Of a stretch of DNA of 64,000 nucleotides, positions 1,291 through 37,504 are shown one piece after another. Numbering within the stretch: position 1 is the stretch's first letter; every line of letters starts with the position of its first letter. The position numbers and the translations under genes were made by a program. Source of the DNA: Thermoproteota archaeon (GTDB taxonomy: Archaea > Asgardarchaeota > Jordiarchaeia > Jordiarchaeales > Freyrarchaeaceae); contig JAPDJY010000039.1 in assembly GCA_029258835.1 (NCBI GenBank), positions 99,615 to 163,614 on the forward strand, written 5' to 3'. Under the pieces are notes generated by a model. It was not told where the DNA came from. It searched no databases and was given only the letters and a program-made list of their open reading frames with translations.

Positions 1291-1844
1291 TCAACCTAAC
1301 TTCCGCTTAATGATCTCTTTAACCAAAAGGTTAAATGCAGCTTCCACGTTTTCACCGTTCTTCGCAGAGGTTTCAAAAAAAGAAGCGTTTATTTCTTTCG
1401 CGTATCTTTTGCCGTCCTCTGTCCGCACCTCCCTAAGGTTAGAGAGGTCAACCTTATTTCCAATAACCACCGTGACAGGTTCCTCCTTAACATTCTTTAA
1501 CAATTCCTTACGCCAATTTTCAAGGTTGTCAAAGGTAGAGCGTCGTGTTATATCGTAAACTAGCATCGCCCCGACTGCACCTTGATAAAACGTACTACGT
1601 ACGTGTTTGAAGTGTGGCTGCCCACCTAAGTCCCAAAGCACCAACTTAGCAGTAAGATCGCCTAAGTTAATAATTTTTGAGAAGATATCTATACCTTTAA
1701 CCCGCTGAGTAGCACGAGCTACCAGCGTATAGTCTTCTTGTAGTCGGCCATAAACCTACCGCTAACATACTTTGATATTAAACTAGTTTTTCCCACGGCA
1801 CCATCACCTGCAAGGATCACCTTATAAACAAGTTCCCGTGACAA
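1291..1844 (-). CDS. Rab-like small GTPase, spliced: exon 1 1729-1844, exon 2 1291-1696, 173 aa
   Basis: Exon 1 starts at TTG 1844 and encodes YKVILAGDGAVGKTSLI (G1). Exon 2 encodes WDLGGQ (G3), NKVD (G4) and ETSAK (G5). Removing 1697-1728 restores YKKTIGIDIF (switch I). Confidence 0.9.
1697..1728 (-). other. Candidate BHB intron (32 nt) in the Rab-like GTPase mRNA
   Basis: Minus strand: GACT AT|A CGCTG-GTAGC-TCGT-GCTAC-T-CAGCG GGTT AA|A GGT. Central 4-bp helix GACT/GGTT, two 3-nt bulges, in-frame TAG inside. Confidence 0.85.
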
Positions 1845-1931
1845 CGATGAAACCCCCTTCTCTAACCGCTATTTCCATTTTTACAGATGAAAAACATTCG
1901 CTAAAAGTTTTAAGCATGTTGATTTCCTTAG

Positions 1932-3276
1932 GTGAACTACCACCCGTTAAAACGGGTGGCTTCCAACATTCGGGGCAGGCTTCTCGCCTATCCCCTCATC
2001 TGCTGGTTCGGGGGTTCACAGCTCTCCTCATCCCATGCCTCTCGTTAAGGCATGGGCTAGGTTAATTGCAGAATTTAAATCCCGATTATAGATTAAACTA
2101 CACTTAGGACATCTAAACTCTCTATCATTAACTTTGGGCAACATGCCCACACTATGACACCCCTTTGAGGTATTCTTTGGATTACTATACACTACAGAAA
2201 TTCCCTCTAAATTAGCTTTGTATTCGATGTATTGCTGTAATTTTCGAAAGCTCCAAGCATGCAACCTTCTGTTTAGCTTAGCAGAACTATTCATGTTCTC
2301 TCTAATTCCATCAAGCTTCTCCATTGCTATTACTGGCTTTTCGAACTGGCTTAGCGTAAGCAACGATTTAGTTGGTTATTATATGCAAATGTTAGTTTAC
2401 AATTTTCTTCTCCTTATGACCAAACCGCTTAACCAAAGTCCAGTCTTTTCTTTCTCTGCAAGTTTCTTCTGATGTGTGCGTATTTTCCTCTTATTTCTCT
2501 TATTCTTTGCTCCGTTCCAAAACTGACCCTTTGTAGGTTTTGGATTTTGCTTTGGTATAGCTACTGCAACAGCTACATTCCACTCCCCTAAATCTACTCC
2601 TATAACAGTTTCTGGCTCATCGATTAGTTCAACGTCTTTCTTAAGCGTGAAGTGTGCATACCACTCCCCGTTTCTCTTCACCATCTCAACCGTGCAAAAT
2701 TTCCACTCCCCTTGCAAAGCTTCTTCTATGAATTTTTGCTGTCTCTTCCCAAAGACTATCGGGAGTGTTATCCTCTCCTTGCAATTAAGGGTTAGAGTAG
2801 CCAGCAAGGAGTTAGTTCGTTGTTGTTTTGGCAAAAGAGTAACACCTTTTGTCAAATCTAATTGAAAGTCTCTTCAGCTTGGGTCGTTCTATTTTGACTT
2901 GCCTTTTTTCTTTTTTCATTGAAACTTTTTAGGATTTCCACTGCTTTATCCCTTGCTGTCTGGATTAAGGCGGTGTTCAGGTTGAATAGCTGTTTAGCTT
3001 TCTCATAGCCATTCTTGTGCAGAGAAGCCTTTGATGTAAAATTGAAGCCTTAGATACCAGTTCACAAGTGCATAATATTCTTCCAAACACTTATTCAGAA
3101 CTAAAACTTTCTTCTTGTTTGGTTTGAAAACCGTTCCTACCACAGTTAGCTGAACTTCTTTCCTCACGGGAACGTCCCTAAAGATTTTTTAACTCTCTAA
3201 GTATTTAATATTAACCTATCCACCTCCCCTAATTCATCCACCTTCACAGATAGGCGGTCTTCTTGCGACAAAAATT
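1932..3276 (-). mobile_element. IS200/IS605-family (IS1341-like, tnpB-only) element, decayed
   Basis: tnpB fragments inside. Right-end hairpin CCACCCGT-TAAA-ACGGGTGG (1940-1959) followed by GTTCAC on the minus strand. Imperfect left-end hairpin near 3235-3260 preceded by TTTAT. Exact ends are inferred. Confidence 0.75.
2028..3167 (-). pseudogene. tnpB: TnpB RNA-guided endonuclease pseudogene (several frameshifts and stops)
   Basis: N-terminus from GTG 3167 (RKEVQLTVVGTVFKPN); RuvC-I IGVDLG in 2397-2855; RuvC-II MEKL, W.FRKLQQYIEYKA, CPKC and RuvC-III NRDLNSAINL in 2028-2363. Confidence 0.88.
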
Positions 3277-3454
3277 ATAAATAAAGTATGACAGCAACTC
3301 TAACCACACCACACCGCTTCTTCTATTAGCTATCACATCCATAACAAAATTACTTTAAAGAAAGAAGCTTAAAAATCGTGAAGAATCTGAGAAGTAAACT
3401 TAACATGCTTAATAGATTTCTCCATCTAAAAGCCGCACATGGAACCTCTTATTG

Positions 3455-4288
3455 CTACAGGAACAACGATGCAATAAACCATAAACCAAGAAGAACTAAT
3501 GCGGCACCACATGAAAACATGATGCGCTGATACCATTTAACACTTATTAAGACTTTACCCTTAGCCACAGCAAATGAAATAGATGCATACCATGCAACAT
3601 CACTAAAAAAGTGGCCTATAACTATAGCCAGCCAGCCGGCAAGGGTGGAACCGAGAAAAACATAGTTAAAATCGAAGACACGTGAGAAGTACTGGAATGC
3701 GGCAGAGGATAAATTAGGGTACATTAACAATGAAAGGGAAGAGCCAAAATATTCTGCAAGAAAAACGAGAAAATTATGCCAGATAAGCAAGTACAAGGCA
3801 GGATCCACATTAGCAACAGCTATCAGAGGGGCATAAGTTAACATAGCCAACCCAACTGTCGCCCACCAGATCCAGTAGAAGGGGTTAGTAACGGTAGCAA
3901 CAACCCCAGAAAGCACAGAGTTCAACGAAGAGGACAAAGAAGGAGGCTGAGAAACAGCACCAGACTCGTCTACTAGCCTTAACTCAGCTCGCCTTGAAGA
4001 ATATGCGGTGTACCCTCCAAAAATTAAAAGAGCAATTCCTCCAGCAATAGTAATAGCCGCTTTAATTACATCATCACTTAAGATTACACCAACACCGTAA
4101 GCTAAGGCAACAATCAAAGGAGCCTCCACAAGAAAATGTCCGAAGACAGTAGCTACACCACCAAACCAACCCCTCCTTAAACTGGAATCAATAGTAACAA
4201 CCAAAAGAGGGCCAGGACTTAAAGCACCAGATAAACCAACAGTAAAACTCAACGCAAAAAGAAACACTAATAGTATTAGAGGACTCAA
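3455..4288 (-). CDS. LysE/RhtB family translocator
   Basis: GLSGALSPGPLL, GHFLVE, NPFYWIWWATVG, GHFFSDVAWY motifs; hydrophobic. Confidence 0.85.
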   Translation of the reverse strand: MSPLILLVFLFALSFTVGLSGALSPGPLLVVTIDSSLRRGWFGGVATVFGHFLVEAPLIVALAYGVGVILSDDVIKAAITIAGGIALLIFGGYTAYSSRRAELRLVDESGAVSQPPSLSSSLNSVLSGVVATVTNPFYWIWWATVGLAMLTYAPLIAVANVDPALYLLIWHNFLVFLAEYFGSSLSLLMYPNLSSAAFQYFSRVFDFNYVFLGSTLAGWLAIVIGHFFSDVAWYASISFAVAKGKVLISVKWYQRIMFSCGAALVLLGLWFIASLFL

Positions 4289-4352
4289 GGAAACACCCTC
4301 CGAACCAATAACGAAGCGAAGACGCTTAAAAAATTAACTTTTTTCTAAAAAA

Positions 4353-7061
4353 TTAATGGTAGAAGGAGAAACGTCGCACATCAACTCCGCATGACTTGCA
4401 GGTCCATTGTTCCGGGTCTTTAGAGTCAAATGGGATCTTGAACGATGCAGAACACTTAGGACATATCTGTGTGGCTTCAACCGCAGGGTAGCCCTCACCA
4501 TCCACGCGCTTCTGGATAGGGTGCAGAGGAGATTCGATAATCGGGGGGACATATCCTTGCTCCCTGTAAAGGTATTTACCGGTCTTTGAGTTAACAGTAG
4601 GAACGCCGAACGGGTAACGCCAGAAGGACCATCCCATGTTCGCAGCAACCCTAGCGCAAATTTTCCTTGCTCCGGGAGCAATGTCAATCAAATACTGGTT
4701 AACATACTCAACGCGCTTCTTAAGGGCATCACGCACACGCTTCTCTTCCTCTTTCTCAAACAAACGAGCCCTAACCGACGACAGAAGTTCCCGTATCCGC
4801 TTACCAAGCTTCCTTAAAGTATCAGCAATGAAAACGAAGATTACCTTAGAAGCTTCCGGAACTTGATATTTAGCCAGATCCTCTGGATGCACGGGATCCA
4901 TATCAGGCGTATGAAAGTTCGCGTTAAAATCTACTAGAACTTTGTGCTCCCGTCCGTCAGCAGGAACCCTATAGAAAAGCTCCCGCCAGTGATAATCGCT
5001 CACGATCCACTCTAACTCACCGGTCTCAGCGTTAACCCATAATTCAACTCGCTCGTAATCCTCGTGATATAAACTTCTAGTGGCGATTGTAAATTCCCCA
5101 GGCCACAGGTAAATGTAGCGTAATACCCAGTAATAGTTTCCTTCAAGCCATACTGGAGCATCATGCCTGTTTCTGTACGGGAAGAGAGATCCATGGTCAG
5201 CGTAGAAGTAGAGGTTGTATCGTTCTAGACCAATCACTTGGACTCCAGAAAGGCCTATGAGTAAAGCTGCTATTGCCAAGAATATTGCACCATACAGGCA
5301 TGCTGAGAACAAACGGTTATACGCGAAGAGTACGAGGTTGGCGTTGTACTCAAAGAATGAGAGCCAGTAGTTGAGCCATCGTTCTGGCGGGAGGCCGAGG
5401 AGGATCATGTAGGGAGATGCGATTATGTTTATGTTTAAGAATTCTGCTAGGCGGAGTATGAAGTATTCTAGGAAGACGAAGAGGCCTCCAGCTAAAAGGC
5501 CTATTGTGAAGACTGCTGGAGCTCCTTCTGGCCGTGTAGAAAGAGCTGGGAAGGATTTTATGGCCCAGTATGCTGAGAACAGGATAAGTGCTATTAGGAA
5601 GAGGAATGATGAACCTATTAATAACCATGTTTGCCCTGTCATGAAGAGGGGCCTGTAGGGACTTGCCCAGATGCTGATCCAAGGGGCAATGTTTACATAG
5701 AAGAATGCTGCTGCAGCAATTATGATTACAATTAGGAAGGGTATTAAGGCTTTGACTAAGGTTGCTTGGTATGAAAGGGCGAAGGGGTTCCATATGGGTT
5801 CGTATTTTTCCTCTAAGTAGTCTGGGTTGATGAAGGGCCCTAAGGTTTCCCCTGTTTCAATTACGCGGATGTTACATTTATTGTCTTCGAGAGGGATTAT
5901 TTCCAGTTCGGGTTCAGGCATCGGGGGAATTTCGTCTCTTGGTACGCGGTCCATTTTTTCATAGGTTATATACGTCTCCTTTTCGCCTAGTAGGGCTCTT
6001 ATCTTCGACGTGACTGTTTTTATCGTCTTTTCGAATTCTTTGACTTTATTCTTCCCTAATAGAAAGTAGTTAGACCACAAGTCTCTTAGAATATATGCTT
6101 TTCTGTGAGGCTCTGTTACTTCTGCTGGAGGAGTCGTGTATGTTGAGATTCTTCCTGAGGAGGCCCAGAAGCCGCCCCAGAAGAATGCAACGACTATGAA
6201 TAGGGCTGCCATGGCTGTTGTTGCTACGTAGTATTTTGTTATGCCGCCCTCTACACTGATATAGTAAGGGAGCCATATTAGGTCGTGAATTATCCTCTCT
6301 GATCCGCTTCCAAGGAAACCTATGAATGAAGCTGTGCTTATTGAACTTCCTATTATTGCCCCGCTCCAGAAGCGCTTACTGTAGAAGGAAGGTATTGATG
6401 ATAGAAGGAGAGTGTAAACGAACGCCATCACAAGAAGCTCATTTGTTAGGACGGACCAGTTGAAGAATGTTACTCGCATTGGTGATATGTAAACTATGTT
6501 GGCGAGTTTTCCTGTTATTAAAGGGATTGCTATGAAGAGGCCCCATGGGAGTACGACTTTGGGGTTTTTAAAGCTGTGTTTGAAGGCTTTCCACATAATA
6601 CTGTATATTTGGAATTGAGAGAATATTCCGCCTATGACTCCCGCGAGAACTAATGTTGCAACGATACCATATTCCCATCCAAACCGGTACCTGTACGATA
6701 GGCTGAGAAAGAGAACAAGAATCTGTGTTTGCTTACCGAACGTGAAGACTATGGAAGATAAAGCAGTTACCATTAGTCCGTCAAGTAACCCCTCGCCTAT
6801 TGACGCTATAAGAAACATTAACAATGGAATTACTCCTTGGAATATTTCCTGTATCATATGTGATGTGTAAAAGTCGCGTAAGTAAAAGTGGATGGCAGCA
6901 TTTAGCGGGCTTTCAAAGTAATATATTAAGAAGTAGTCGAGCCATGAAAGAGCTGCGAAGACTACCCCGAGGACTATCAGTAGTGATCGTTTAAGCGTGA
7001 AAAAGGAACGCAGTTTTGACAGTACAGCCGCTCTTACTGTTGTTCCTTTTTCAGTAGGCAA
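4353..7061 (-). CDS. Large multi-pass membrane protein of unknown function with a C-terminal soluble domain and Zn ribbon
   Basis: 902-aa ORF with many hydrophobic segments and C-terminal CPKC...CKSC; GAAGGTGA RBS upstream. Confidence 0.75.
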   Translation of the reverse strand: MPTEKGTTVRAAVLSKLRSFFTLKRSLLIVLGVVFAALSWLDYFLIYYFESPLNAAIHFYLRDFYTSHMIQEIFQGVIPLLMFLIASIGEGLLDGLMVTALSSIVFTFGKQTQILVLFLSLSYRYRFGWEYGIVATLVLAGVIGGIFSQFQIYSIMWKAFKHSFKNPKVVLPWGLFIAIPLITGKLANIVYISPMRVTFFNWSVLTNELLVMAFVYTLLLSSIPSFYSKRFWSGAIIGSSISTASFIGFLGSGSERIIHDLIWLPYYISVEGGITKYYVATTAMAALFIVVAFFWGGFWASSGRISTYTTPPAEVTEPHRKAYILRDLWSNYFLLGKNKVKEFEKTIKTVTSKIRALLGEKETYITYEKMDRVPRDEIPPMPEPELEIIPLEDNKCNIRVIETGETLGPFINPDYLEEKYEPIWNPFALSYQATLVKALIPFLIVIIIAAAAFFYVNIAPWISIWASPYRPLFMTGQTWLLIGSSFLFLIALILFSAYWAIKSFPALSTRPEGAPAVFTIGLLAGGLFVFLEYFILRLAEFLNINIIASPYMILLGLPPERWLNYWLSFFEYNANLVLFAYNRLFSACLYGAIFLAIAALLIGLSGVQVIGLERYNLYFYADHGSLFPYRNRHDAPVWLEGNYYWVLRYIYLWPGEFTIATRSLYHEDYERVELWVNAETGELEWIVSDYHWRELFYRVPADGREHKVLVDFNANFHTPDMDPVHPEDLAKYQVPEASKVIFVFIADTLRKLGKRIRELLSSVRARLFEKEEEKRVRDALKKRVEYVNQYLIDIAPGARKICARVAANMGWSFWRYPFGVPTVNSKTGKYLYREQGYVPPIIESPLHPIQKRVDGEGYPAVEATQICPKCSASFKIPFDSKDPEQWTCKSCGVDVRRFSFYH

Positions 7062-7155
7062 CCATCATTCACCTTCGAAAACTTTTTTGGTTTAAATGTT
7101 ACTACTGCTACAAGAAACTAAAAAATCTTCTCCTTACCAATGTGGGGGTTTACGT

Positions 7156-7878
7156 TTGAGGAAAACCAACGATGAAAAGATCGTTTTAAAGGTAGGTGGC
7201 TCTATCATTCAAAATAACCGGGGGGAGGTCCATGTTGATTTAGTGCGGGAATACGCACTTATGATTAAGGAGTTAAGGAAGGAAGGGTTTGATATTACAG
7301 CCGTGATTGTTGGTGGAGGAGCGGTCTCTAAGAGATTTGCTAGTTACGCCCGTAAACTCGGGGCTTCGGAGGGAGTGTGCGACGTTGTAGGTATTCAGGC
7401 GACGAGGCTAAACGCGTACTTGTTCATTGCAGCGATAGGAGACGACGCATATCAGGTTGTCCCACGGACATTGAATGAGGTGGCCCAGGCGTCAGCGACG
7501 GGAAAAGTCATCGTTGTTGGAGGGTTACAGCCAGGACAATCTACGAGTGCCGTTGCGGCACTTGTAGCTGAGCGGTTGAGGGCAAATAAGCTCATTAATG
7601 CAACCGACGTGAAAGGAGTCTTCACGTCTGACCCGAAAAGAAATCCTGAAGCAAAGATTATTCCTAAAATGACGACTAAAGAACTTCAAGACATTATTTT
7701 ATCTAGTGCTTATGTTGCAGGGGGCTATGAGCTCTTTGACTTGATTGCTTTAAAAGTGATCGAGAGAGCGAGGATACTGCTAGTCGTGTTAGACGGAAGG
7801 AATACCGACAACGTGAGATTAGCTGTTAAAGGAGAACATGTGGGCACATGGGTTTACCCGTGTCCCGGAGGAGATTGA
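7156..7878 (+). CDS. pyrH: UMP kinase
   Basis: IVLKVGGS, IVGGG, GIQATRLNA, GGLQPGQST, TDVKGVFTSDPK; start moved to TTG 7156. Confidence 0.92.
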   Translation: MRKTNDEKIVLKVGGSIIQNNRGEVHVDLVREYALMIKELRKEGFDITAVIVGGGAVSKRFASYARKLGASEGVCDVVGIQATRLNAYLFIAAIGDDAYQVVPRTLNEVAQASATGKVIVVGGLQPGQSTSAVAALVAERLRANKLINATDVKGVFTSDPKRNPEAKIIPKMTTKELQDIILSSAYVAGGYELFDLIALKVIERARILLVVLDGRNTDNVRLAVKGEHVGTWVYPCPGGD

Positions 7879-7879
7879 A

Positions 7880-8155: not shown

Positions 8156-8163
8156 GTAGGGAG

Positions 8164-8310
8164 TGGTGCGGGGGGAGGGAAACTCGGAGATGCATAATTT
8201 AGGGCACCCCTTTCGAACCCCCGAACCCATCCGCAACATCTGCGGGACCGGATCTTGAGTACGGCCGATGTAAGGTGTCCGGCGCCTTTGACCAACTCGG
8301 CAACCCCCGC
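8164..8310 (-). tRNA. tRNA-Leu(CAA) with three introns (about 8259-8276, 8229-8239, 8181-8211); CCA encoded; mature 87 nt
   Basis: Exons rebuild GCGGGGGTTGCCGAGTTGGTCAAAGGCGCCGGACTCAAGATCCGGTCCCGCAGGGGTTCGGGGGTTCGAATCCCTCCCCCCGCACCA; each insert forms a BHB/BHL motif. Confidence 0.92.
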
Positions 8311-8376
8311 ACCTGTAAATGAAGTTTAGCAGCTTTCTAAAAAATATTTTTCCCCTCTTCTTTGTTATGTTATCAA

Positions 8377-11098: not shown

Positions 11099-11226
11099 GC
11101 GGGGGTAGCCAAGCGGACAAGGGTCCGCACAACGGCGCTGATCGGATCCTTTCCTCAGGATCCGAGTGGATGCCTTGAGAGCCAGTTCCCCGTTGGGGAG
11201 CGTGGGTTCGAATCCCACCCCCCGCG
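11099..11226 (+). tRNA. tRNA-Ser(TGA) with two introns (11119-11130, 11141-11171); CCA not encoded
   Basis: Exons rebuild GCGGGGGTAGCCAAGCGGACAACGGCGCTGGCCTTGAGAGCCAGTTCCCCGTTGGGGAGCGTGGGTTCGAATCCCACCCCCCGCG; long variable arm, G discriminator. Confidence 0.9.
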
Positions 11227-11261
11227 CTAATTTTAACTTTTGTTTTGAAAGAAAGGTTGGT

Positions 11262-11606: not shown

Positions 11607-11686
11607 TATCAGCCCCTCTAAACATGGAATGCCTTTGAAAAATATAAAAAGGCAACAGGAGGAGACCACTTACGAAAACAGTTAAG

Positions 11687-27430: not shown

Positions 27431-27844
27431 ATGAACAAGGAAGTTTTAGAAGAGTTCAAAGAAACGCTTGATGAATTAAAAGAATACTCGAAGATGGGGA
27501 TACCGATAATAGTCGAAGGGCAAAAGGACGAAGCAAGCCTTAGGGAGATAGGGATCACCGGGCCAATAATAACGATTTCAGGGATGAAATTATTGGAAAT
27601 AGCAGAAATGCTTGAAAAAGAGGAAATCATAGTCCTCACAGACTTCGACAGAAGAGGAGATAAAATGGCATTAACAATCCTCTCCTACAGGGTAGGAGAC
27701 AGTACACTCACAAAGTACTTCAGAAGTAAAATAAGAAAGTTAAAAGCACACATAACACCATGCGTGGAGGGGTTCGCTAAAACATACCTCAAAGCATGTA
27801 GAATGGAAAAAACATACAAGAACCCGTTTAGAAGGTTAAATTAG
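27431..27844 (+). CDS. Stand-alone Toprim domain protein
   Basis: IIVEGQKD, IVLTDFDRRG. Confidence 0.9.
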   Translation: MNKEVLEEFKETLDELKEYSKMGIPIIVEGQKDEASLREIGITGPIITISGMKLLEIAEMLEKEEIIVLTDFDRRGDKMALTILSYRVGDSTLTKYFRSKIRKLKAHITPCVEGFAKTYLKACRMEKTYKNPFRRLN

Positions 27845-27957
27845 GAACAAAAAATAGGAGGCTTTCATCTAAAAGAGAGTTAAGAGCACTAGTTAGTTAC
27901 CGTCCACTCAATCATTTCCCAATAGGGTTATGTGTTAAATTGGGAGGTGAAGTTCAC

Positions 27958-29176
27958 ATGGCTAATCGAAATGAAGTTGGAACAATAAAGTACATTATAA
28001 AGGCGAAGATAGAAGTAAACGGGGTGGTCGAGAAGCCTGACGTTATAGGCGCGATTTTTGGTCAAGTACGTTGAGCTCACCGCTCACGTAGACCAATTAG
28101 AGGGGCTTCTCGGCTCTGAATTAGACCTTCGAGAGTTGCAACGTACGGGTAGGATAGGTAGGATAAGAGCGAACATTGAGACGCACGGTGGGAAATCTGT
28201 AGGTGAGATTATTATTCCATCAAGTTTGGATAAGGTTGAAACAGCCATCCTTGCTGCGGCGCTTGAAACTATTGATAGAATTGGGCCGTGTAGTGCGAAG
28301 GTAAGTTTTGAGGCAATTGAAGACGTGAGGGAGAGTAAACGCAAGAAGATTATTGAGAGAGCGGTAGAAATTCTTAGGAGGTGGCCTGAGGAGGTTGCCC
28401 CTGAAACGGAGCAAATAATGAATAAGGTAATTGAGGCTGTGCGCGTTGAGGAAATTTGTAAGTATGGTAAGGAAGGGTTGCCGGCTGGGCCTGAAATAGA
28501 TTCTGCTGATGAGGTTATAGTAGTCGAGGGAAGGGCAGACGTGTTAAACATGTTGAAGTATGGTTTTAAAAATGTCATTGCAGTGGAGGGAACCAGCATA
28601 CCGAGAACTATAGTGGAACTTAGTAAAAGAAAAACTATTACAGCATTTCTTGATGGGGATAGGGGCGGGGATTTGATTTTGAAGGAGCTTCTTCAGGTTG
28701 CAGAGGTCGATTATGTTGCTAGGGCTCCACTGGGGAGGGAGGTGGAGGATCTTAGTTTTAAGGAGATTATGAAGGCGTTGAATAACAAGCTTCCCGTTGA
28801 GCAGGCGGTGGAACATGAGGCAGTAAAAAGGAGAGAGGAGAGGAAGCCTTTAATGGTAAGAAGGGGCATTAGACAGGTTCCCCATGAGATCTTGGAGCAC
28901 GCTAGGCGGATTTTTGGTTCAGGTAAGGCGGTTATTTTGGGAGAGCAGTTTAATGTTGTTGCGGAGGTCGACGTATCAGAGCTTGCAGAATACCTTAAGA
29001 GCATGGATGGGAGAGCTGAAGCAGTTATTCTTGATGGAATAGCAACCCAGAGGCTTGTTGACATCTCTCAGGAGAGGGGAATACAGTGGCTCGTCAGCGT
29101 CAGACAGGAAAACATCGTTAAAAAGCCCCCCGACCTTAAAATATTAGAGTTTAACGAAATATTAGGGCATGATTGA
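27958..29176 (+). CDS. dnaG: Archaeal DnaG (primase-like, exosome-associated), spliced: exon 1 27958-28065, exon 2 28097-29176, 395 aa
   Basis: ATG 27958 after GGAGGTGA. Exon 1 encodes KYIIKAKIEVNGVVEKPDVIGAIFGQ; exon 2 encodes LEGLLGSELDLRELQRTGRIGRI, VEGRADV and DGDRGG. Confidence 0.93.
28066..28096 (+). other. Candidate BHB intron (31 nt) in dnaG mRNA
   Basis: GGTC AA|G TACG-T-TGAGC-TCACC-GCTCA-CGTA GACC AA|T; perfect GGTC/GACC central helix; in-frame TGA inside. Confidence 0.9.
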
Positions 29177-29194
29177 AGGGAGTGTAGATGGAAA

Positions 29195-30325
29195 GTGGTT
29201 AGCGGAGAGCTGGGAAAAGGAAGCGTAGGATATAGAAGAGAGGAGGTCTCCAAGAGGAGGAAGGGCGGACGAAGACGTTGGAAAGCTGTGAGTATGATAG
29301 AGCTGGAGCCGTTAGGATACCCTCTCAGAGCTGCAGGGGAGGAGGGGGAAACTGTTTTAACTACCGATAATCCCGAGATATTTCAGGCATATGCCAGAGA
29401 GCAGTGGGGAGGCTTATATGTTAAGAAAGGAGACTTACTTTTTGACCGGTCTCTTTTTCCAGACTTCGCTTTTAAAATAGTCGAAATGGCGCCAAGTGAG
29501 GGGCAGATAACCAATAGAACAGTGTTTAAGCTTAGCAGGAGAAGAAGGCCGGAAGTTCACGGGTTGGCTAAAATTAGTTTTTCAGACGTAGTAGGACAGG
29601 AGAGGGCGAAAAGAAAGTGTATGATAATAAAAAGGTACTTGGAAGAGCCAGAGTTCTTTAAGGAGTGGGCGCCCAAAGCGGTTCTTTTTTACGGCCCTCC
29701 CGGGACAGGGAAAACGATGATGGCGCAAGCTTTAGCTAATGAGGCGAAAGCGTCCTTTTTCTTCGTTAAGTCACCAGAGCTTATAGGCACCCATGTCGGT
29801 GACGCAGCCAATAGGATACATAGACTTTTCAAAAGGGCAAGAGATGGATCACCCAGTATTGTATATATAGATGAAATAGATGCTGTAGGTTTAGATAGGA
29901 GGTTTCAGAGTGTTCGAGGCGACGTGACGGAAGTTGTTAACGCCCTCCTTGCTGAAATGGACGCACTAGAAGGTGAGAGAGGCGTGGTATGTATTGGGGC
30001 AACAAACAACATTATGCTTCTCGACGCTTCCCTAAGAAGCAGGTTTGAAGAGGAAATAGAATTTACATTACCCAACCTAGAGGAAAGAAAGAGGATACTT
30101 GAAATGTATGCAGCGAAAATTCCTTTAAGGGTTGAAGCAGATTTCAATAAAATAGCTAGGATAACGGAGGGGTTCTCTGGGAGAGACCTTAAGGAAAAGG
30201 TGCTTAAGGCGGTATTCCATCAAGCGATAGCTGAGGGTGTGGATGTTATAACACACCAGATGATTGAAGAATCTGTAAGGGGATTGATTAGGAAGGATAA
30301 GGGTACCGAGAGACTTTTTATTTAA
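29195..30325 (+). CDS. AAA family ATPase (COG1223-like)
   Basis: PLGYPL, FQAYAREQW, WAPKAVLFYGPPGTGKT, IDEIDA, RGDVTEVVNALL. Confidence 0.9.
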   Translation: MVSGELGKGSVGYRREEVSKRRKGGRRRWKAVSMIELEPLGYPLRAAGEEGETVLTTDNPEIFQAYAREQWGGLYVKKGDLLFDRSLFPDFAFKIVEMAPSEGQITNRTVFKLSRRRRPEVHGLAKISFSDVVGQERAKRKCMIIKRYLEEPEFFKEWAPKAVLFYGPPGTGKTMMAQALANEAKASFFFVKSPELIGTHVGDAANRIHRLFKRARDGSPSIVYIDEIDAVGLDRRFQSVRGDVTEVVNALLAEMDALEGERGVVCIGATNNIMLLDASLRSRFEEEIEFTLPNLEERKRILEMYAAKIPLRVEADFNKIARITEGFSGRDLKEKVLKAVFHQAIAEGVDVITHQMIEESVRGLIRKDKGTERLFI

Positions 30326-30348
30326 TGCGTGCCTGCTGAGGGGTCGAG

Positions 30349-30939
30349 TTGAAGAAGGTTATTGCAATAGTAGGCATGCCTGGAAGTGGGAAGAGTGTTG
30401 CTACAGGCGTAGCTGCAAGAGAGGGGTTCCCGGTAATTTCAATGGGCGACGTAATACGTGAAGAGGCAATGTTAAGAGGGTTAAACCCTTCTCCAGAAAA
30501 CATAGGTAGGATCATGTTGGAGCTTAGAGATGAAGAGGGAGATGACGCCGTAGCGAGGCGATGCATCCCTAGGATAGAAGCAGAAAAGTCTAATGTTGTT
30601 ATTGTTGAAGGAATAAGAAGCATGGCGGAGGTTGAGGCATTTAAAAGAAAATATCCAGATTTCATTCTTATCGGAGTGCATGCGTCCCCAGAGACGCGAC
30701 TAAGGAGATTAGTAGCAAGAGGGAGAGAAGACGATCCTAGGACATTAAGTCATTTTAGGGAAAGAGACAAACGCGAGTTACAAGTGGGGATAGGGAATGC
30801 TATAGCGATGGCAGACTATATGCTGGTAAACGAGGGAGACATAGAAGAATTCAAAGAAAAGGTGAGGAAACTTCTTAGGAGGGTAATAGATGAGAATAAG
30901 GGTGGAGACCCCTCTAAACCCGACAGAAGATTTAAGTAA
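30349..30939 (+). CDS. UPF0200 nucleotide-kinase-like P-loop protein
   Basis: IVGMPGSGKS, SMGDVIR, EGIRS, RGREDD. Confidence 0.88.
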   Translation: MKKVIAIVGMPGSGKSVATGVAAREGFPVISMGDVIREEAMLRGLNPSPENIGRIMLELRDEEGDDAVARRCIPRIEAEKSNVVIVEGIRSMAEVEAFKRKYPDFILIGVHASPETRLRRLVARGREDDPRTLSHFRERDKRELQVGIGNAIAMADYMLVNEGDIEEFKEKVRKLLRRVIDENKGGDPSKPDRRFK

Positions 30940-31318
30940 AGTTATAAAGGCACTTAAAACTGTTTTGGAAACCGAATACTCCGTACAGGAAGAGGAAGAT
31001 ACTAGGAAAGTGGTGGGAGAGGCTGAAGGCATAGATAGGTTGCAACAGTTTTACAATAGGTTACGTGAACAGTACATTGTAGAGGCCGCCAGAGGACTGC
31101 TTAAGAAGAGAGCCAGAGAAAGGGAGGTTATCTTCTTTTTAAATAAGCAAGCAGCCTATGTGGGTAAAATAAGTTTTTGCGCTCCTGAAAAAGAATCACC
31201 TATGGGAGCAATAAAGGTGACAATAACTAGCGATAAGATAGAAGAGGTTATTGATTGGCTTTGCCCAAAAACGGTTAAGGGAAAACCTCAGGAGGTTGAA
31301 CCTCCAATTGATGCTTGA
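30890..31318 (+). CDS. UPF0201 (COG1931) putative RNA-binding protein
   Basis: PTEDLSKV, LNKQAAYVG, IDWLCPKT. Confidence 0.88.
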   Translation: MRIRVETPLNPTEDLSKVIKALKTVLETEYSVQEEEDTRKVVGEAEGIDRLQQFYNRLREQYIVEAARGLLKKRAREREVIFFLNKQAAYVGKISFCAPEKESPMGAIKVTITSDKIEEVIDWLCPKTVKGKPQEVEPPIDA

Positions 31319-32140
31319 ACATGGTAGAAAGCGAATTGAAGATGAAGCTAAGCATTTCGACGCTTATCCATTTGAAAGACCCTTTTGAGAAGATATTTGA
31401 AACAATCGAGAAAGTGGCACAGACAGATGTTGGCGTATATGTTAAATTATTGGAATTGATCGAAGACGGTTTTCACATGCCGACTAAGGAGAGGATAAAG
31501 CGGTTGAATGAGTTGCTGAAGGCTCCAACATAACAAAGTTTACCGTTCACGTATCATTTCTGATATAAACATAGCAGCTAATTTCGCCTTCTCATCAAAA
31601 GGGTTTTAGGGTTTTTATTGGAAGCTCTGGAAGGAGCTGTGAAAACTAATGCGAAAGTATGGTTTCTTCATCCAGGGTGGCCGTCACCATTCTCCGTAAA
31701 CTTTCCCGAGAAAGCATGAGAAAAACAGAGAGGAACAGTGAAGTGCTTGTAGAGCAGGTGGGGAAACTGGGAGAAGTGAAGGGTGGTCGTGGAAAAATAT
31801 GGCGCCACCTTACCGTTTCTTATTAAGGAGCCACGGGTAATAATCAAGTTTTTCAAGGAAGTGAAAGGGGGCTGGCTTAAGTTTCGATATGGGGTACGCC
31901 TCAAAGACGGGAAGAATAGGGGGAACAGTGAAAAAGGTTAGGCAGCATATAGCCCATGTTCATATTCATGGCAATACACGGGGCGAGAGCAGCATTTACC
32001 TATTGGTAAAGGGAGCATGAATTGGAAAGCGGTCACATTGGAAGTAGCCTAGAGGAGGATCTAAAGGAATGCTTTATAGCTGAAAATTATTAGGTTAAAG
32101 GACGCATTAGAAACCATAGAGAAATGGGGAAATTCCTAAC
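31315..32140 (+). pseudogene. Sugar phosphate isomerase/epimerase (TIM barrel) pseudogene
   Basis: Motif remnants in shifting frames (TVH, DINIA, FLHPG, FDMG, HVHIHGN, HLPIGKG) with several stops and frameshifts; end approximate. Confidence 0.7.
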
Positions 32141-32191
32141 AAAAAAGAGAGGTTCTAAGCGGGGGAATGCCTGACTGAGAGTGGTGGACGC

Positions 32192-33139
32192 TTAGGGTGA
32201 TGGAGGAAGTACGGTAAAGGACCCTTTAAGATCTAGGAGAACCCGCATGAAGTCTTGGGCAACGACCGTGTTTGGAAAAATGTTCTTTGCTTGCTGAAGT
32301 AGCAGGTCTGCATTAGAGTACCTAGAGCTGATATGCGTGAGAACCAATAGTTTAACTTCTGCTTTATGGGCGATGTGGGCAGCTTGAACGCTTGTCGAAT
32401 GCTTTGTCTCTATAGCTTTTTTTTCAAGGGTATGGTCGAAGGTGCTTTCATGAATTAAAACATCTGCGGATTTGCTTAGCTCTAGAAGATGCTGGCACGG
32501 GGTGGTATCTCCTGAGTATACGATTTTACGGCCACTTTGGGGGGGGTCCACGACGGCTTCCGGCTTTATGACACGACCATTTTTTAATGTTACTGGTTCT
32601 CCCAACTGAAGCCTTTTCCAAAGAGGCCCCATCGGAACACCTAGTTCAATAGCCTTTTCAGGATGAAATTTTCCCGGCCGAGGTTTTTCTTCAAATGAAT
32701 AAGCGTATGCATCGATAGAGCCGTGATTCACCCTGCAACATTTAACGTAATAGTAGGGAGACTCGCAAATAACTCCGGGATGTACTGGGTGGACGTATAA
32801 ATCGAAGGACAAGCCAAACTCTAGATTTTCTATAAGAGCTCTAATAAATTCTGCGAGAGAGGGGGGGCCATAAACATGAAGTGGAGTTTCCCTTTCCATC
32901 AAGGAAAGGGTTTGCAAAAGCCCTGGAAGACCCATAACGTGATCGCCATGAAGATGGGAAATAAATATTTTTGAGATGCGGGCCACGCTCATTTTTGCCT
33001 TAAGCATTTGCCTTTGGGTTCCCTCGGCACAATCAAAGAGGACTATTTCCCTGCCTCTAGCCAAAGCGATCGCCGGCAGGTTTCTCTCGGGGGTCGGCAC
33101 GCTTCCTGAGGTACCTAAGAAGACGATTTTAATCATCAA
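32192..33139 (-). CDS. rnz: Ribonuclease Z
   Basis: FLGTSGSVP, DCAEGTQRQ, SHLHGDH, YSGDT, HEST, HST, THISSRY. Confidence 0.96.
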   Translation of the reverse strand: MMIKIVFLGTSGSVPTPERNLPAIALARGREIVLFDCAEGTQRQMLKAKMSVARISKIFISHLHGDHVMGLPGLLQTLSLMERETPLHVYGPPSLAEFIRALIENLEFGLSFDLYVHPVHPGVICESPYYYVKCCRVNHGSIDAYAYSFEEKPRPGKFHPEKAIELGVPMGPLWKRLQLGEPVTLKNGRVIKPEAVVDPPQSGRKIVYSGDTTPCQHLLELSKSADVLIHESTFDHTLEKKAIETKHSTSVQAAHIAHKAEVKLLVLTHISSRYSNADLLLQQAKNIFPNTVVAQDFMRVLLDLKGSFTVLPPSP

Positions 33140-33169
33140 AGAAGTGCACTCCCCGTTCTTTGCTTAATT

Positions 33170-34198
33170 CTAGAAACGTGAAACAATTATCTTTCGAGTC
33201 AAACTTTTATGAACTCTGATATAATATATTTCAACTATCCGGAGGCCATGTGAAGCCATAACGTCCTCTATGTTTATTACTGAAGGGGAAGCTATGCAGA
33301 ACCATCCGTCTTTCCTTAGAAAGGAAACAGCGGAGGAGAGGAAGTCCCGTATAAGCACGTCAGGTGGAGATCCCTTAGTTGACGAGGCGCGGCCGTAAGG
33401 GGGGTCTGTTACCACACGGTCTACACGGGATAAAAAGGGATCACGCGCATCCGCTAAAACTAATTCGCTAGGAACGCCATAATACTTGAGGTTTCTTTTA
33501 GCTCCGAGGAGAACATTCCGGTCTAGGTCACACCCCACAACTCGGCATCCTATGAGAGCGGCTTCGATCAGTATGCTTCCAGCACCACAAAAGGGGTCTA
33601 ATAGAATATGGTGACGAGATGCCCGAGCCAAGTTAACCATTGCCCTAGCAAGGTAGGGATTCATGGATGATGGTGTGAAAAAGGGGCGAAACCTAGGTAG
33701 ACGTGCTCTAAGCGTTCTTCTAATAGAACTGCCAATGTATAAGCCAAGGAGGAAGCATCCCTCTGAGAGTACTCCCAACAGCAACTTATTCGGGGATTTT
33801 AGGTCCACCTTTGCCCCAGTGACTTCTCTCACATGCCTGCCTATGACACGCTCAAGCATTAGCCTGTTAATACTGAGAGAGTGCTGCTTAACACGTTTTA
33901 CCCTCACAGCGAAGGTATCGGATGCAGAAATGAACATGGGTAGGTTAGAAATGTGAATGCTTTCAATTATTTCATCGATGCAGGCTGGCGACTTTGCTAG
34001 GAGCAAGCAGCCACAATGACACAAAGCTGCACGTTTTAAAATTAGATTGGCAGCGGCGTAGTCCGTTTTCACTATAAAAACTTGGTCCAACACCGAGTAG
34101 TTAAAAGTAAAGCTGCCGCTTTCAAGAATGGCCTTGCATTCAGCAGAAGGTAGTAAGGAATGCTCACCTGATAGTAGAAAGAAAAACGATGCCTTCAA
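33170..34198 (-). CDS. tRNA m2G10 methyltransferase (THUMP + MTase, Trm11/TrmG10)
   Basis: LLSGEH, RPFFTPSSM, LDPFCGAGS, TDPPYGR. Confidence 0.9.
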   Translation of the reverse strand: MKASFFFLLSGEHSLLPSAECKAILESGSFTFNYSVLDQVFIVKTDYAAANLILKRAALCHCGCLLLAKSPACIDEIIESIHISNLPMFISASDTFAVRVKRVKQHSLSINRLMLERVIGRHVREVTGAKVDLKSPNKLLLGVLSEGCFLLGLYIGSSIRRTLRARLPRFRPFFTPSSMNPYLARAMVNLARASRHHILLDPFCGAGSILIEAALIGCRVVGCDLDRNVLLGAKRNLKYYGVPSELVLADARDPFLSRVDRVVTDPPYGRASSTKGSPPDVLIRDFLSSAVSFLRKDGWFCIASPSVINIEDVMASHGLRIVEIYYIRVHKSLTRKIIVSRF

Positions 34199-35100
34199 CT
34201 TTCCAATGCCCCAGCAATAAGAGGTGCTAGGGATATTAGACTGACATCACTGGGTACGCTATCTGTTCCCACGAGGCTCCTTGCACCGGCGTTAAATATT
34301 TTGAGGCGGGCGTCGCCTATCAGAAGTGGATGAACGCATGCGACGTGAACAGCCCTTGCCCCCTGTTTAACAGCCATTGAAATGGCGTTCACCACCGTGC
34401 CACCAGTACTTATTATGTCATCTACTATGATCACATCGCTTCCAGACACGTCTATATGCTTTTCCTTAGTGACGATCTCTCCAGTATACTTGTCTCTGTG
34501 CTTCTCAAGGAACACGAAGTTGCAGTCTAAAATCCTTGCAACAGCCTCCCCCTCTTTACAGGCTCCTTCATCGGGTGCTAAAACTATTGGGTTCTTCAGA
34601 GAAAAAGACTTAAAATGCTCTCCAATTAAAGGAGCTGCATTTAAATCAACAAATGGAACATTCAATCCATCGAAAACACGCGTATTATGAATGTTAACGG
34701 TTATCACCTTATTTACACCGCAATCACATAGCATACGGCAGATATATCTTCCACTAACAGCTTCTCCAGGCAAAAACGCTTTATCTTGGCGAGCATAAGC
34801 AAGGTAAGGAATAACGGCGGTAACACTATTAGCTCCCTGATCAATCACTCCGTTGACTAATAGGAAGAGTTCGATTAGATTTGAGTCCTGAGGAGGAGGC
34901 GTTGACTGAACAACGATCACATCGCAGCCCTCCACCGAGTCAAGTAACCTAACATAAAGTTCGCCATCAGGGAATCTCTTAAAGGATACAGGTACAAGTT
35001 TTAACCCGAGAAGACGGGAGATCTTAACCGTTAAAAGCTGGGAAGCTGAGCCAGCTACAAGCACCATATTGTCCAAGTTACTCATAGAAAAACCCTCCAT
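34195..35100 (-). CDS. prs: Ribose-phosphate pyrophosphokinase
   Basis: RFPDGE, PYLAYARQD, APDEG, IVDDIISTGGT. Confidence 0.95.
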   Translation of the reverse strand: MEGFSMSNLDNMVLVAGSASQLLTVKISRLLGLKLVPVSFKRFPDGELYVRLLDSVEGCDVIVVQSTPPPQDSNLIELFLLVNGVIDQGANSVTAVIPYLAYARQDKAFLPGEAVSGRYICRMLCDCGVNKVITVNIHNTRVFDGLNVPFVDLNAAPLIGEHFKSFSLKNPIVLAPDEGACKEGEAVARILDCNFVFLEKHRDKYTGEIVTKEKHIDVSGSDVIIVDDIISTGGTVVNAISMAVKQGARAVHVACVHPLLIGDARLKIFNAGARSLVGTDSVPSDVSLISLAPLIAGALES

Positions 35101-35315
35101 CCTCTCTTTAAGGAAAAAATGAAGACAATACCTAGTAAAACCTTTCCCACCAGAAACCTTTCAGGTTTAAGCGGCGCTGCAAAGGCTTCGCAAAATAATA
35201 AAGATTCCCTTCTAATAGGCACCGGGTTAAAGCGTTAACGAGGAGAGCGAAATTAAGAAATAAGGTAGGAGTCTAAGTTTAAAGAAGCTGACTTCACACT
35301 AATAGAGGTGAAGAA

Positions 35316-36344
35316 ATGATAAGAGAGGCGCGTTTTTACGAGGTTAAAGGCGAGGGGGACGTCGTCTGTCTCTTATGCCCTAACAAATGTTTTATTAAAA
35401 ATGGGAAGCGGGGGAGCTGTGGTGTTAGGGAAAACAGGGAGGGAACGCTTTACACGTTAATTTATGGATCAGTGTCCTCGATGGCGGTTGACCCGATAGA
35501 GAAAAAGCCGCTTTTCCATTTCTGGCCAGGAAGCGACATATTTTCGATAGCTACTGTTGGGTGCAATCTTCATTGCATGCACTGCCAGAACTGGCACATA
35601 TCTCAAGTGTCTATTGAAAGCGGGTTAACGAGAGATATATTACCGGAGGAGATAATTAAGGCCGTCGAGGAAAGCGGCAGTAAGTCTATTGCATACACTT
35701 ATAACGAACCTTTCATATGGTATGAGTACGTTTACGATGTCGCAAAGCTAGCTCATAAGAAAGGGATACTAAACGTGCTGGTTACTAACGGTTATATTCT
35801 AGAGGAGCCATTAAGAGAAATAGCACCTTACATTGACGCTGCAAACGTCGATGTGAAGGCTATGCGTGACGAATTTTATAAAAAAATATGTAAAGTTTCA
35901 AGTGTGAAGCCAGTCCTAGAAACAGTAGTTATAATGAAGGAGTTGGGTATTCACGTCGAATTAACGTACCTAGTGATACCGACCCTCAATGATGATGAAG
36001 ATGAAATAAGAAAATTTGTAAGGTGGGTTAAAGAGGATGTAGACAGCGACACGCCAGTACACTTCTCAAGGTTTTACCCACATTATAAGTTAAGCGAGCT
36101 ACCCCCGACACCAGTTTCAACCATTATGAAAGCTCAGAAGATAGCGTTAGATGAGGGGCTTCATTATGTTTACGCAGGTAACGTTCCAGGGTACGGGGAA
36201 GACACGTACTGTCCACGGTGCGGCGAGAAGGTAGTTGAAAGGTACGGGTTTACTGTGAGAAAATGCAACCTAAGAGGCGGGAAGTGTCCTAAATGCGGAG
36301 AGACAATAGCGATAGTTGGAGAATGTAAGGAAACAGTATGGTAA
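35316..36344 (+). CDS. AmmeMemoRadiSam system radical SAM enzyme
   Basis: CLLCP, DPIEKKPLFHF, GCNLHCMHCQNW, AYTYNEP, HFSRFYP, YVYAGNV. Confidence 0.92.
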   Translation: MIREARFYEVKGEGDVVCLLCPNKCFIKNGKRGSCGVRENREGTLYTLIYGSVSSMAVDPIEKKPLFHFWPGSDIFSIATVGCNLHCMHCQNWHISQVSIESGLTRDILPEEIIKAVEESGSKSIAYTYNEPFIWYEYVYDVAKLAHKKGILNVLVTNGYILEEPLREIAPYIDAANVDVKAMRDEFYKKICKVSSVKPVLETVVIMKELGIHVELTYLVIPTLNDDEDEIRKFVRWVKEDVDSDTPVHFSRFYPHYKLSELPPTPVSTIMKAQKIALDEGLHYVYAGNVPGYGEDTYCPRCGEKVVERYGFTVRKCNLRGGKCPKCGETIAIVGECKETVW

Positions 36345-36358
36345 GGCGGCAACGTCAT

Positions 36359-37504
36359 TTAGCTAACTGGGCGCCAGACTAAACCCAGTTCATCAGCAAG
36401 CTGATAGGCTTTTTGCATCTCCTCGGGTGAAACACGGCGATTTATATCACGATAATTTTTGCTTTTAGGCACAAGATGTGTTGGATAATACTGAGACATT
36501 ACATTTACCAATGCTTTAGGACAGTTTTCAGCGATCCATTCTAAGACGGGGCGGGTGCAGCACTCAACATGTCCTGGCAGAACAAGGTGGCGAATTATCA
36601 TTCCAGAGGAGCCGTTAGCGACTGTTTGCTCGTATGCTAGCTTATGGTTCCGCGAGACAACTTCCCAGTAGTTTTTAACCTTGCTTAGCTTTTCGGCACA
36701 TTCATTATTGCCATACTTAAAGTCAGGCAACCAGAAATCCATGACATCTAATAAAAGCATCATGCATTCCTTAGAGCAGTACATGTTTGAGTTCCAAAGC
36801 TGAGGTATATTAACTCTAAGTTGCCTAATGGCGTCGAGGATTATCCACGTGGATGGAGTAGGGTCTCCGCCAACATAATTTATGTTTCGTGCACCCTCAC
36901 GCTTCAACGTTCTAGCTATGCTGGCCAGGTCGGCGGCAGTTACCTCTGCACCGTTCAGAGGATCCGTGCTTATATCGTGATTCTGACAGAAAACACAGGA
37001 AAAAGTGCAACTAGTGAAGAAGAATGCACCGCTGGACGTTCATCCAGCGATTGTGCCTGAGGGCACTAGGGGTGCTTCCTCACCCATGTGCAGAAACGCT
37101 GTGGAAACGTAAGCTTTAGCACCAAGTTTGCAGAAGCCAAGCTTACCTTCTAAACGGTTTACACCACACCTTCTTTCGCAAAAATGGCAGTTAACAAGGA
37201 TTCGCTTGGCAAGCTCTGCCTTTAGGTCAAGATAGGATGTTTGAGGTGTGTCAAGCTCGCCTAGCTCCACAGATCCTTGATCCACTTTCGTAAGGAGTCT
37301 ACGGAATTGCTTACTGGCACGTTCATGAACATTCCAAAGCATCTCGGTAGGAGAATTAAGGGGTACATCAATGTTTACCTTACTAGCTATTAAAAACTTT
37401 GCAGGCCGCTTATCGTTGAAAACGTCATAGTACCTTTTAAGCCGTTCTAAAACTACGTTATCACTCCACACTTTAAGCGAATCAGGTCTTACCACACGCC
37501 ACAT
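36359..37504 (-). CDS. PflX-like radical SAM protein, spliced: exon 1 37051-37504, exon 2 36359-37023, 372 aa
   Basis: CHFCERRCGVNR, HMGEEAPLVPSGT|IFFTSCTFSCVFCQNHDIS, NINYVGGDPTP, DFKYGN, IIRHLVLPGH. Confidence 0.9.
37024..37050 (-). other. Candidate BHB intron (27 nt) in the PflX-like radical SAM mRNA
   Basis: Minus strand: AG GCAC AA|T CGCTGGA-TGAACG-TCCAGCG GTGC AT|T CT; perfect GCAC/GTGC helix; in-frame TGA. Confidence 0.9.

Follow-up and report, generated by a model that had tools for sequence, protein, structure and literature searches.

Putative bulge-helix-bulge introns in three protein-coding genes of an Asgard archaeon

How could three genes that are each broken by an in-frame stop codon be expressed as full-length proteins? 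The question is raised by a stretch of 64,000 nucleotides from an uncultured Asgard archaeon of the Jordarchaeia (assembly GCA_029258835.1, contig JAPDJY010000039.1, positions 99,615 to 163,614; hereafter the window), in which a Ras/Rab-like GTPase gene, the archaeal dnaG gene, and a PflA/PflX-like radical-SAM gene carry short inserts (sites 1, 2, and 3). In all likelihood these inserts are genuine archaeal bulge-helix-bulge (BHB) introns of the relaxed HBh' type, located inside protein-coding genes and spliced out by the tRNA-splicing endonuclease EndA and the ligase RtcB. The inserts fold into the corresponding structures, their removal restores the reading frame, the introns are conserved as RNA structure and the exons as coding sequence, and the enzymes are present in the genome. 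These observations suggest that cleavage and ligation do occur, and that they are constitutive. The initial annotation also proposed that splicing could act as an ON switch for these genes, which is pure speculation.

Interrupted motifs and the fold of the inserts

Precise removal of each insert rebuilds a conserved motif. In the GTPase gene (minus strand) the 32-nt insert, 1728..1697, lies within switch I. Joining ACT AT to A GGT ATA gives K-K-T-I-G-I-D, as part of T-I-G-I-D-I-F-S-K..W-D-L-G-G-Q, and the unspliced reading runs K-K-T-I, R-W, and then into a TAG, with the frame shifted by 32 nt. In dnaG (plus strand) the 31-nt insert, 28066-28096, separates the FGQ and LEG codons. The joint GGT CAA/TTA GAG GGG gives F-G-Q-L-E-G-L-L-G-S-E-L-D-L-R-E-L-Q, and the unspliced reading is G-A-I-F-G-Q, V-R, and a TGA, with the frame shifted by 31 nt. 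The insert of the radical-SAM gene (minus strand; 27 nt, 37050..37024) is found just 5' of the CxxxCxxC motif. Here ACA A/TC TTC TTC gives S-G-T-I-F-F-T-S-C-T-F-S-C-V-F-C; the insert keeps the frame, and the unspliced reading P-S-G-T-I-A-G ends at a TGA.

The initial annotation had placed inserts at these three positions, each with an in-frame stop, and had stated that a cut after the second bulge nucleotide restores frame and motif in genes that are otherwise intact. The sequence and the translations bear this out. The predicted products are colinear with intron-less orthologues, and Pfam matches are contiguous: positions 1-31 of the Ras model match exon 1 of the GTPase and positions 33-161 match exon 2. 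NCBIfam identifies the second gene as DnaG (NF003108), with exon 2 matching from model position 28 onward, and gives weak PflA-like matches to the radical-SAM gene.

The lengths of the inserts bear on whether they are translated. If the in-frame stops were recoded as selenocysteine or pyrrolysine, the inserts would be part of the proteins. Site 3 taken singly is suited to this, since it is 27 nt long, in frame, and has a single TGA, and stop-codon recoding has been proposed for Jordarchaeia (PMC9723677). However, recoding is unable to explain the inserts because their lengths shift the frame. This is the case at sites 1 and 2 (32 and 31 nt), and the homologues of site 3 in relatives are 28 and 31 nt long. 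In addition, the insert evolves as a hairpin and not as codons, and the probability of recoding is close to nil.

All three inserts adopt the same fold. In the RNAfold minimum-energy structures of the three sites there is a 4-bp helix, a 3-nt bulge, and a hairpin that stacks against the helix on its 3' strand. The energies are -17.4, -17.5, and -17.7 kcal/mol for sites 1 to 3, and the z-scores against dinucleotide shuffles are -2.7, -3.3, and -3.7. The central helix is formed by the four exon-1 bases immediately 5' of the 5' bulge and the four intron bases immediately 5' of the 3' bulge: GACU/GGUU (site 1), GGUC/GACC (site 2), and GCAC/GUGC (site 3). Three bases follow the 3' helix strand at all sites, which gives a 4-bp helix with 3-nt bulges at opposite ends. 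A strict hBHBh' motif also has an outer exon-exon helix; sites 1 and 2 have none, and that of site 3 measures only 2 bp. As modeled, all three motifs are of the relaxed HBh' form, with the second bulge unclosed by a proper outer helix. The anatomy first described for these inserts (a 4-bp helix between two bulges plus a GC hairpin) therefore holds for the helix, the 5' bulge, and the hairpin, but the second bulge has no real outer helix (0-2 bp). The hBHBh' and HBh' nomenclature is reportedly that of Marck and Grosjean.

Such structures are rare enough that their placement is informative. When the strict motif is defined as a 4-bp helix (at most two GU pairs), a 3-nt bulge, and at least four Watson-Crick closing pairs, 44,728 occurrences are found genome-wide in about 5.7e8 position-length combinations, or about 8e-5 each. 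Three exact frame-restoring placements at three gene breaks are therefore far beyond chance.

The proposed mechanism would begin with transcription of the genes with the insert retained. The central helix of the pre-mRNA would form between the four exon-1 bases directly 5' of the bulge and the last four intron bases ahead of the 3' cut, and the rest of the intron would fold into the hairpin. A heteromeric (alpha-beta)2 tRNA-splicing endonuclease would cut past the second base of each 3-nt bulge, and RtcB would join the exons and probably circularize the intron. The full-length GTPase, DnaG, and radical-SAM protein would be encoded by the spliced mRNA only. The features of the three genes are listed in Table 1.

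Table 1. Exons, introns, and structural elements of the three interrupted genes, in window coordinates
Feature	Position	Strand	Details and basis
GTPase exon 1 (P-loop GDGAVGKT; 38 aa)	1729..1844	-	Pfam
GTPase intron 1 (32 nt)	1697..1728	-	Frame, RNAfold, Pfam, G001/f2 orthologues
GTPase exon 2 (stop codon included)	1291..1696	-	Pfam; dN vs G001
Site 1 helix 5' strand GACT	1731..1734	-	Followed by bulge ATA 1730-1728, predicted cut after 1729
Site 1 helix 3' strand GGTT	1699..1702	-	Followed by AAA 1698-1696, predicted cut after 1697
Site 1 inner hairpin h' (10 bp, one bulged U)	1703..1727	-	RNAfold
dnaG exon 1 (ATG 27958 probable; 36-42 aa)	27958..28065	+	dN/dS 0.015 vs G002
dnaG intron 2 (31 nt)	28066..28096	+	Frame, RNAfold, orthologue loci
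dnaG exon 2 (Toprim domain; 359 aa; stop included)	28097..29176	+	Pfam, NF003108
Site 2 helix 5' strand GGTC	28060..28063	+	5' bulge AAG 28064-28066
Site 2 helix 3' strand GACC	28091..28094	+	3' bulge AAT 28095-28097
Site 2 inner hairpin	28067..28090	+	RNAfold
Radical-SAM exon 1	37051..37504	-	dN vs G002
Radical-SAM intron 3 (27 nt)	37024..37050	-	Frame, RNAfold, f1/f2 homologues
Radical-SAM exon 2 (Radical_SAM domain; stop included)	36359..37023	-	Pfam, NCBIfam
Site 3 helix 5' strand GCAC	37053..37056	-	5' bulge AAT 37052-37050
Site 3 helix 3' strand GTGC	37026..37029	-	3' bulge ATT 37025-37023
Site 3 inner hairpin (7-8 bp stem)	37030..37049	-	RNAfold

Homologous inserts in related genomes

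The decisive line of evidence for what appears to be precise removal of the inserts is the comparison with relatives. Genomes of relatives are designated by G-numbers, and the Asgard families sampled by f-numbers, f1 being the family of the window and f2 its sister family. In dnaG an insert directly after GGx-CAA is found in the window's own genome, in G001 and G002 of the same family, and in G012 and G023 of family f4. The inserts in these genomes are 31, 31, 34, and 32 nt long, and each has its own hairpin and, when cut by the same rule, restores the frame. The hairpin stem and loop in G001 and G002 are unlike those of the window copy. Fifteen dnaG orthologue loci from other families are uninterrupted and read G-A-[IV]-F-G-Q-T-E-G-L-L-G, and the intron-less orthologue is colinear with the predicted spliced product: GAIFGQTEGLLG. 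The f4 introns (G012, G023; L017, L018) interrupt the codon that is also interrupted in the family of the window, and no intron is found here in the sister family f2. From this distribution it follows that f2 has lost the intron or that the site gained one more than once.

The GTPase gene shows the same pattern. In G001 the same codon of its orthologue is interrupted by 30 nt, with the same flanks, GACU AUA .. GGUU AAA, and with a 9-bp hairpin of wholly different sequence. Six f2 orthologues lack the insert, and the intron-less form is again colinear with the predicted product: DYKMTLGTNIFSK. The G001 gene (L022:1345-1400) also has a second insert of 44 nt with a BHB-like fold inside the P-loop, GDG/TVGKT, and there would therefore be two introns in the gene of that species. 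The small-GTPase query finds 49-57 matches in G017, G027, and G037, compared with 10 in the genome of the window; the expansion of GTPases in Asgard archaea is already known.

The radical-SAM insert is shared by the two sister families. All five f1 genomes carry it, with a length of 27 or 28 nt, as do five f2 genomes, with a length of 31 nt, and its codon position does not change. The orthologue loci examined in other families are uninterrupted, and their SGTIFFTSC is colinear with the predicted product. In an alignment of eight copies the proposed structure is 89% paired, as against 30-58% with slid partners. The central helix is 100% paired in all eight, and two hairpin pairs change on both sides. 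Homologous introns thus conserve structure and not sequence, with hairpins that vary and a helix and bulges that are retained. The lengths of the inserts differ by 1-4 nt between species and the exons remain open, so that only precise removal fits.

The exons are under purifying selection. For the three genes compared with relatives, nonsynonymous divergence (dN) is 0.02-0.25 while synonymous divergence (dS) exceeds 1 or has reached saturation, and the exons are free of stops. For example, dN is 0.13 for GTPase exon 2 against G001 and 0.25 for radical-SAM exon 1 against G002, with dS saturated in both. The dN/dS ratio near 1 that was named at the outset as a sign of dead genes is not seen.

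These data also bear on whether the genes are pseudogenes or the inserts are errors of sequencing or assembly. A naive reading does give a frameshift or a premature stop in each gene. However, the exons combine low dN and saturated dS with no other defects, and the inserts are shared by independent assemblies of several species and by Logan contigs from a vent metagenome. The window contains a truly decayed TnpB gene (2028-2855), and it looks different: within 120 nt its frame changes several times and stops accumulate, and it lacks a BHB motif. Decay and artefact are largely excluded by the same-codon inserts in relatives, the compensatory changes in the hairpins, and the purifying selection, and the chance of either is minute.

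Contigs from environmental samples, assembled independently, give further information on the DNA. The interval 27500-37499, which includes sites 2 and 3, was checked against contigs from two metatranscriptome runs (X18 and X19, from one study) and two DNA runs. In a vent-metagenome DNA run, which may be the source sample, Logan contigs of 14 kb and 5.3 kb are colinear with both inserts, and no DNA joints skipping the inserts occur in the Logan contigs of this run. Vent and sediment metagenomes from many studies contain the stretch of the window. Exact spliced-junction patterns for dnaG and the radical-SAM gene, in both their own and f2 forms, are absent from JGI metagenome contigs. Among DnaG homologues there is no full-length protein at least 95% identical, which would indicate a spliced form.

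A hop of the ribosome over the insert would be an alternative to splicing. Translational bypassing of the phage T4 gene 60 type accounts for the stable hairpin and the early in-frame stop in every insert, and the site 2 insert follows one CAA codon and ends in another, so that a hop between them would yield the splice product. The other two sites do not fit. At site 1 the sole matching landing codon, ATA, would delete the conserved Gly of T-I-G, and at site 3 no matching landing codon leaves the frame open. Matched codons with the protein kept, as in the T4 type, are therefore possible at site 2 only. Relatives conserve the geometry of the 4-bp helix and bulges and the cut rule, and not the take-off and landing codons. 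The cbf5 site, for which crenarchaeal splicing is documented (PMC2738675), has this geometry as well. Bypassing is thus very unlikely.

The position of the breaks argues against a division of each gene into two separate polypeptides, with the hairpin as a terminator or structural element between them. It is true that exon 2 is called as an ORF (open reading frame) with an alternative start; for example, public DnaG entries are 348-375 aa long. However, the breaks fall in motifs that are indivisible: switch I of the GTPase, a point six residues before the radical-SAM Cys motif, and the N-terminal motif of DnaG. Exon 1 is short (38 aa in the GTPase and 36-42 aa in DnaG), the public DnaG exon-2 ORF opens with residues derived from the intron, and the BHB cut restores colinearity whatever the length of the insert. 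Split genes have accordingly a very low probability.

The DnaG entries show instead how such genes are affected by annotation. The public Jordarchaeales DnaG entries are in this size range, and they cannot hold exon 1 (36-42 residues) plus exon 2 (359 residues). The entry for the window is a 372-aa ORF, 28058-29176, with a start inside the intron. The suggestion that many genes of the lineage are misannotated is thus confirmed for DnaG.

Several observations weigh against splicing. The central helix of site 1 includes two G-U pairs, and that of dnaG in G001 and G002 has one mismatch. The 44-nt second insert of the G001 GTPase misses the strict cut rule by one base. The outer helix is missing or only 2 bp long at the three sites, and cleavage would therefore rely on an endonuclease of relaxed specificity, a property judged here from homology. 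Contigs of the RNA runs span two parts of dnaG exon 2 (28164-28391 and 28732-29156) and end 68 nt before the junction. They also touch the gene neighboring dnaG, but none reaches the dnaG or the radical-SAM junction, and no spliced transcript is seen in these contigs that stop short of the junctions. Set against the evidence from relatives, these points leave BHB splicing as the favored explanation, and three mRNAs very probably need to be cut and rejoined by tRNA-splicing enzymes.

Splicing enzymes, cbf5, and extent across the genome

The genome has the enzymes that splicing would require. Two genes, at C1:12233.. and C6:39796.., match PF01974 (tRNA_int_endo), and one matches PF01139 (RtcB) with 607 bits. 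The EndA alpha protein, which is most similar to its crenarchaeal counterpart, has 190 aa, of which residues 11-190 align nearly without gaps to residues 10-186 of the catalytic alpha subunit in the Aeropyrum pernix heterotetramer (E = 4e-46). Retained in it are the His of GPGIDHAP, the Tyr, the Lys, and the N-terminal loop segment. In the second paralogue the aligned position is not a His, which fits a structural subunit. In its likeness to the crenarchaeal (alpha-beta)2 endonuclease (PDB 3P1Z, 3AJV, 2ZYZ; PMC5829648, PMC3241643) the alpha protein retains the His and the loop region; the second paralogue likewise lacks the His, but it is nearer to EndA of Methanopyrus and Methanocaldococcus than to crenarchaeal beta subunits.

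The type of endonuclease matters for a relaxed motif. Relaxed HBh' motifs need (alpha-beta)2 or epsilon2 endonucleases (PMC5829648), and the N-terminal loop gives the crenarchaeal enzyme its broad specificity (PMC5829648, PMC3241643). Cutting of relaxed motifs by the EndA of this genome is plausible because Asgard archaea possess an (alpha-beta)2 EndA with the L1 loop (PMC5829648). The host thus appears, by homology, to encode both a relaxed-motif endonuclease and an RtcB ligase.

The known precedent for mRNA splicing in archaea is cbf5. Introns in cbf5 pre-mRNA of Crenarchaeota were reportedly described by Watanabe in 2002, Yoshinari in 2006, and Yokobori in 2009. The cut in these introns separates bulge residues two and three and falls at the codon of the catalytic Asp (PMC2738675), in agreement with the use of crenarchaeal cbf5 in the initial annotation as the validated mRNA case. 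The three window introns are in other genes, but a fourth intron of the genome is at the cbf5 location: its cbf5 gene has a 27-nt intron (C27:11929-11955) that splits the codon for the catalytic Asp after its first base (G/AC). An intron at this codon is found in five of the 18 Asgard families sampled (f1, f2, f13, f16, and f18). The introns of the window resemble those of crenarchaeal cbf5 (Aeropyrum, Sulfolobales, Desulfurococcales) in that they are short, lie in a protein gene, and have a relaxed BHB motif with the same cut, a variable interior, conserved boundary pairing, and dependence on a hetero-oligomeric endonuclease. They differ in that the host is an Asgard archaeon, at least 13 genes of one genome are involved instead of one, and the crenarchaeal introns are the ones confirmed by cDNA.

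A genome-wide scan suggests that at least ten more genes are interrupted. The assembly that holds the window has 2.72 Mb in 91 contigs and some 2,700 genes, and the scan required the motif, restoration of an ORF, and coding potential. In addition to the three window sites it found ten strong-hairpin candidates whose central helix is strict and whose cuts restore the frame. Seven have a protein-family match on one exon or both. They are cbf5, with DKCLD and TruB_N matches across the intron; aIF2-gamma, with the intron in the P-loop GHVDHG/K/TT; PCMT, with model positions 2-59 and 61-208 on the two exons; a SelD-like AIRS protein, with model positions 2-48 and 49-100; an FAD oxidase, with FAD_binding_4 on both exons; GatE, with GatB_N on both exons; and a hexapeptide acyltransferase. 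For both PCMT and the SelD-like protein the two exons belong to the same family. The other three candidates were judged on the reconstituted peptide alone, and one of them resembles ahcY. The genome would thus have at least 13 introns and plausibly a few dozen. A scan for further BHB motifs had been proposed as a check of genome-wide splicing, and its outcome, at least ten more cases, agrees with a system-level phenomenon in this lineage. Introns of EndA type in mRNA as such a phenomenon are supported on comparative, structural, and enzymatic grounds.

Statistical estimates of the total are less precise. When the 3' cut is moved by 1-2 bases as a control, 416 frame-restoring motifs compare with about 356, an excess of about 60 with a wide error. 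The excess emerged only for short introns or with a filter on the bulge bases. Offset controls over all intron lengths gave no excess because same-strand gene boundaries dominate the background. A crude genome-wide count of ORF fusions was without power (276 real compared with 247 for a parallel-pairing decoy). The mirror-repeat decoy was inflated by low-complexity sequence, and the hairpin-length extension of the parallel-pairing decoy was flawed. Most of the 13-20-nt "introns" of the scan are apparently ordinary boundaries between genes of an operon. Within the window no fourth intron gene was found, and the other candidates there are ordinary operon boundaries. A BLAST search of the 13 introns against the genome revealed no repeated intron family, and there is therefore no sign of recent transposition.

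The mechanism is already known; what is new is its host, the genes affected, and the scale. In the literature searched, cbf5 is the only archaeal gene with confirmed mRNA splicing (PMC2738675). Should the introns be spliced, this curiosity of a single gene widens to at least 13 genes in one genome, and genes for replication, translation, and signaling depend on the tRNA-splicing endonuclease and RtcB. DnaG, aIF2-gamma, GatE, SelD, Cbf5, and small GTPases could then be made only after splicing catalyzed by proteins. Gene callers truncate or split such genes, which biases the gene content recorded for Asgard genomes, their pseudogene counts, and the metabolic reconstructions made from them, and a BHB-aware gene caller is required for their annotation.

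A broader proposal appears evenly balanced between true and false. It holds that mRNA splicing by EndA and RtcB is a genome-wide and essential layer of expression in Jordarchaeia and several other Asgard lineages. It would involve dozens of core genes, gain and loss of introns at the codons of conserved motifs, a cbf5 intron that predates the split of Asgard and TACK or was repeatedly reacquired, and perhaps regulation through splicing efficiency. The interrupted protein genes are found in the closest prokaryotic relatives of eukaryotes, and their presence and absence differ between families. The gain and loss of introns and the reach of protein-only splicing before the spliceosome thereby become directly testable.

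tRNA introns and neighboring features

Interrupted tRNA genes are also present in the window, although fewer introns were recovered than the eight reported at first, at least three in all. With either threshold Rfam detects no tRNA here, and a T-arm pattern search finds one. ARAGORN finds one interrupted tRNA in the window, at 11099-11227 (plus strand), and calls it Arg(ACG) with a 57-nt intron. Removal of 11125-11178 from this gene gives instead a 75-nt Gly(CCC) with a poor D-arm, and the inserts total 54-57 nt. A splice-then-scan script identified a tRNA-Leu(CAA) with two introns at 8164-8310 (minus strand) that Rfam and plain ARAGORN missed. It emerges after removal of a 31-nt BHB insert at 8181-8211, and an 18-nt intron in the anticodon loop remains. 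In the whole genome ARAGORN finds 23 tRNA genes, 18 of them interrupted.

The tRNA introns of the lineage provide a second comparison for the mRNA introns. The accessible text of two sources (10.64898/2026.10.13.758758; 10.1101/2023.11.21.568159) describes a high load of tRNA introns in this class, and reports non-canonical or multiple tRNA introns in Thermoproteales and in the Asgard families Freyrarchaeaceae, Jordiarchaeaceae, and Atabeyarchaeaceae. The tRNA introns of Thermoproteales and Asgard archaea share with the mRNA introns of the window the lineage, the size range, and the BHB or HBh' element, and the enzymes are presumably the same. As far as that text goes, the published introns are in tRNA genes alone, whereas those of the window have an mRNA substrate and a cut that is constrained by the reading frame.

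Two further features lie next to the interrupted genes. The split TnpB-like gene at 2028-2855 (minus strand) was considered as a fourth intron gene and rejected as decayed: a stretch of about 120 nt runs through three frames with in-frame stops, and no BHB motif is present. A structured stretch just 3' of it, at 1850-2030, may be a guide (omega) RNA. An intact radical-SAM gene of the AmmeMemoRadiSam type (35316-36344, plus strand) is convergent with the interrupted PflA-like gene, and the two are 15 nt apart.

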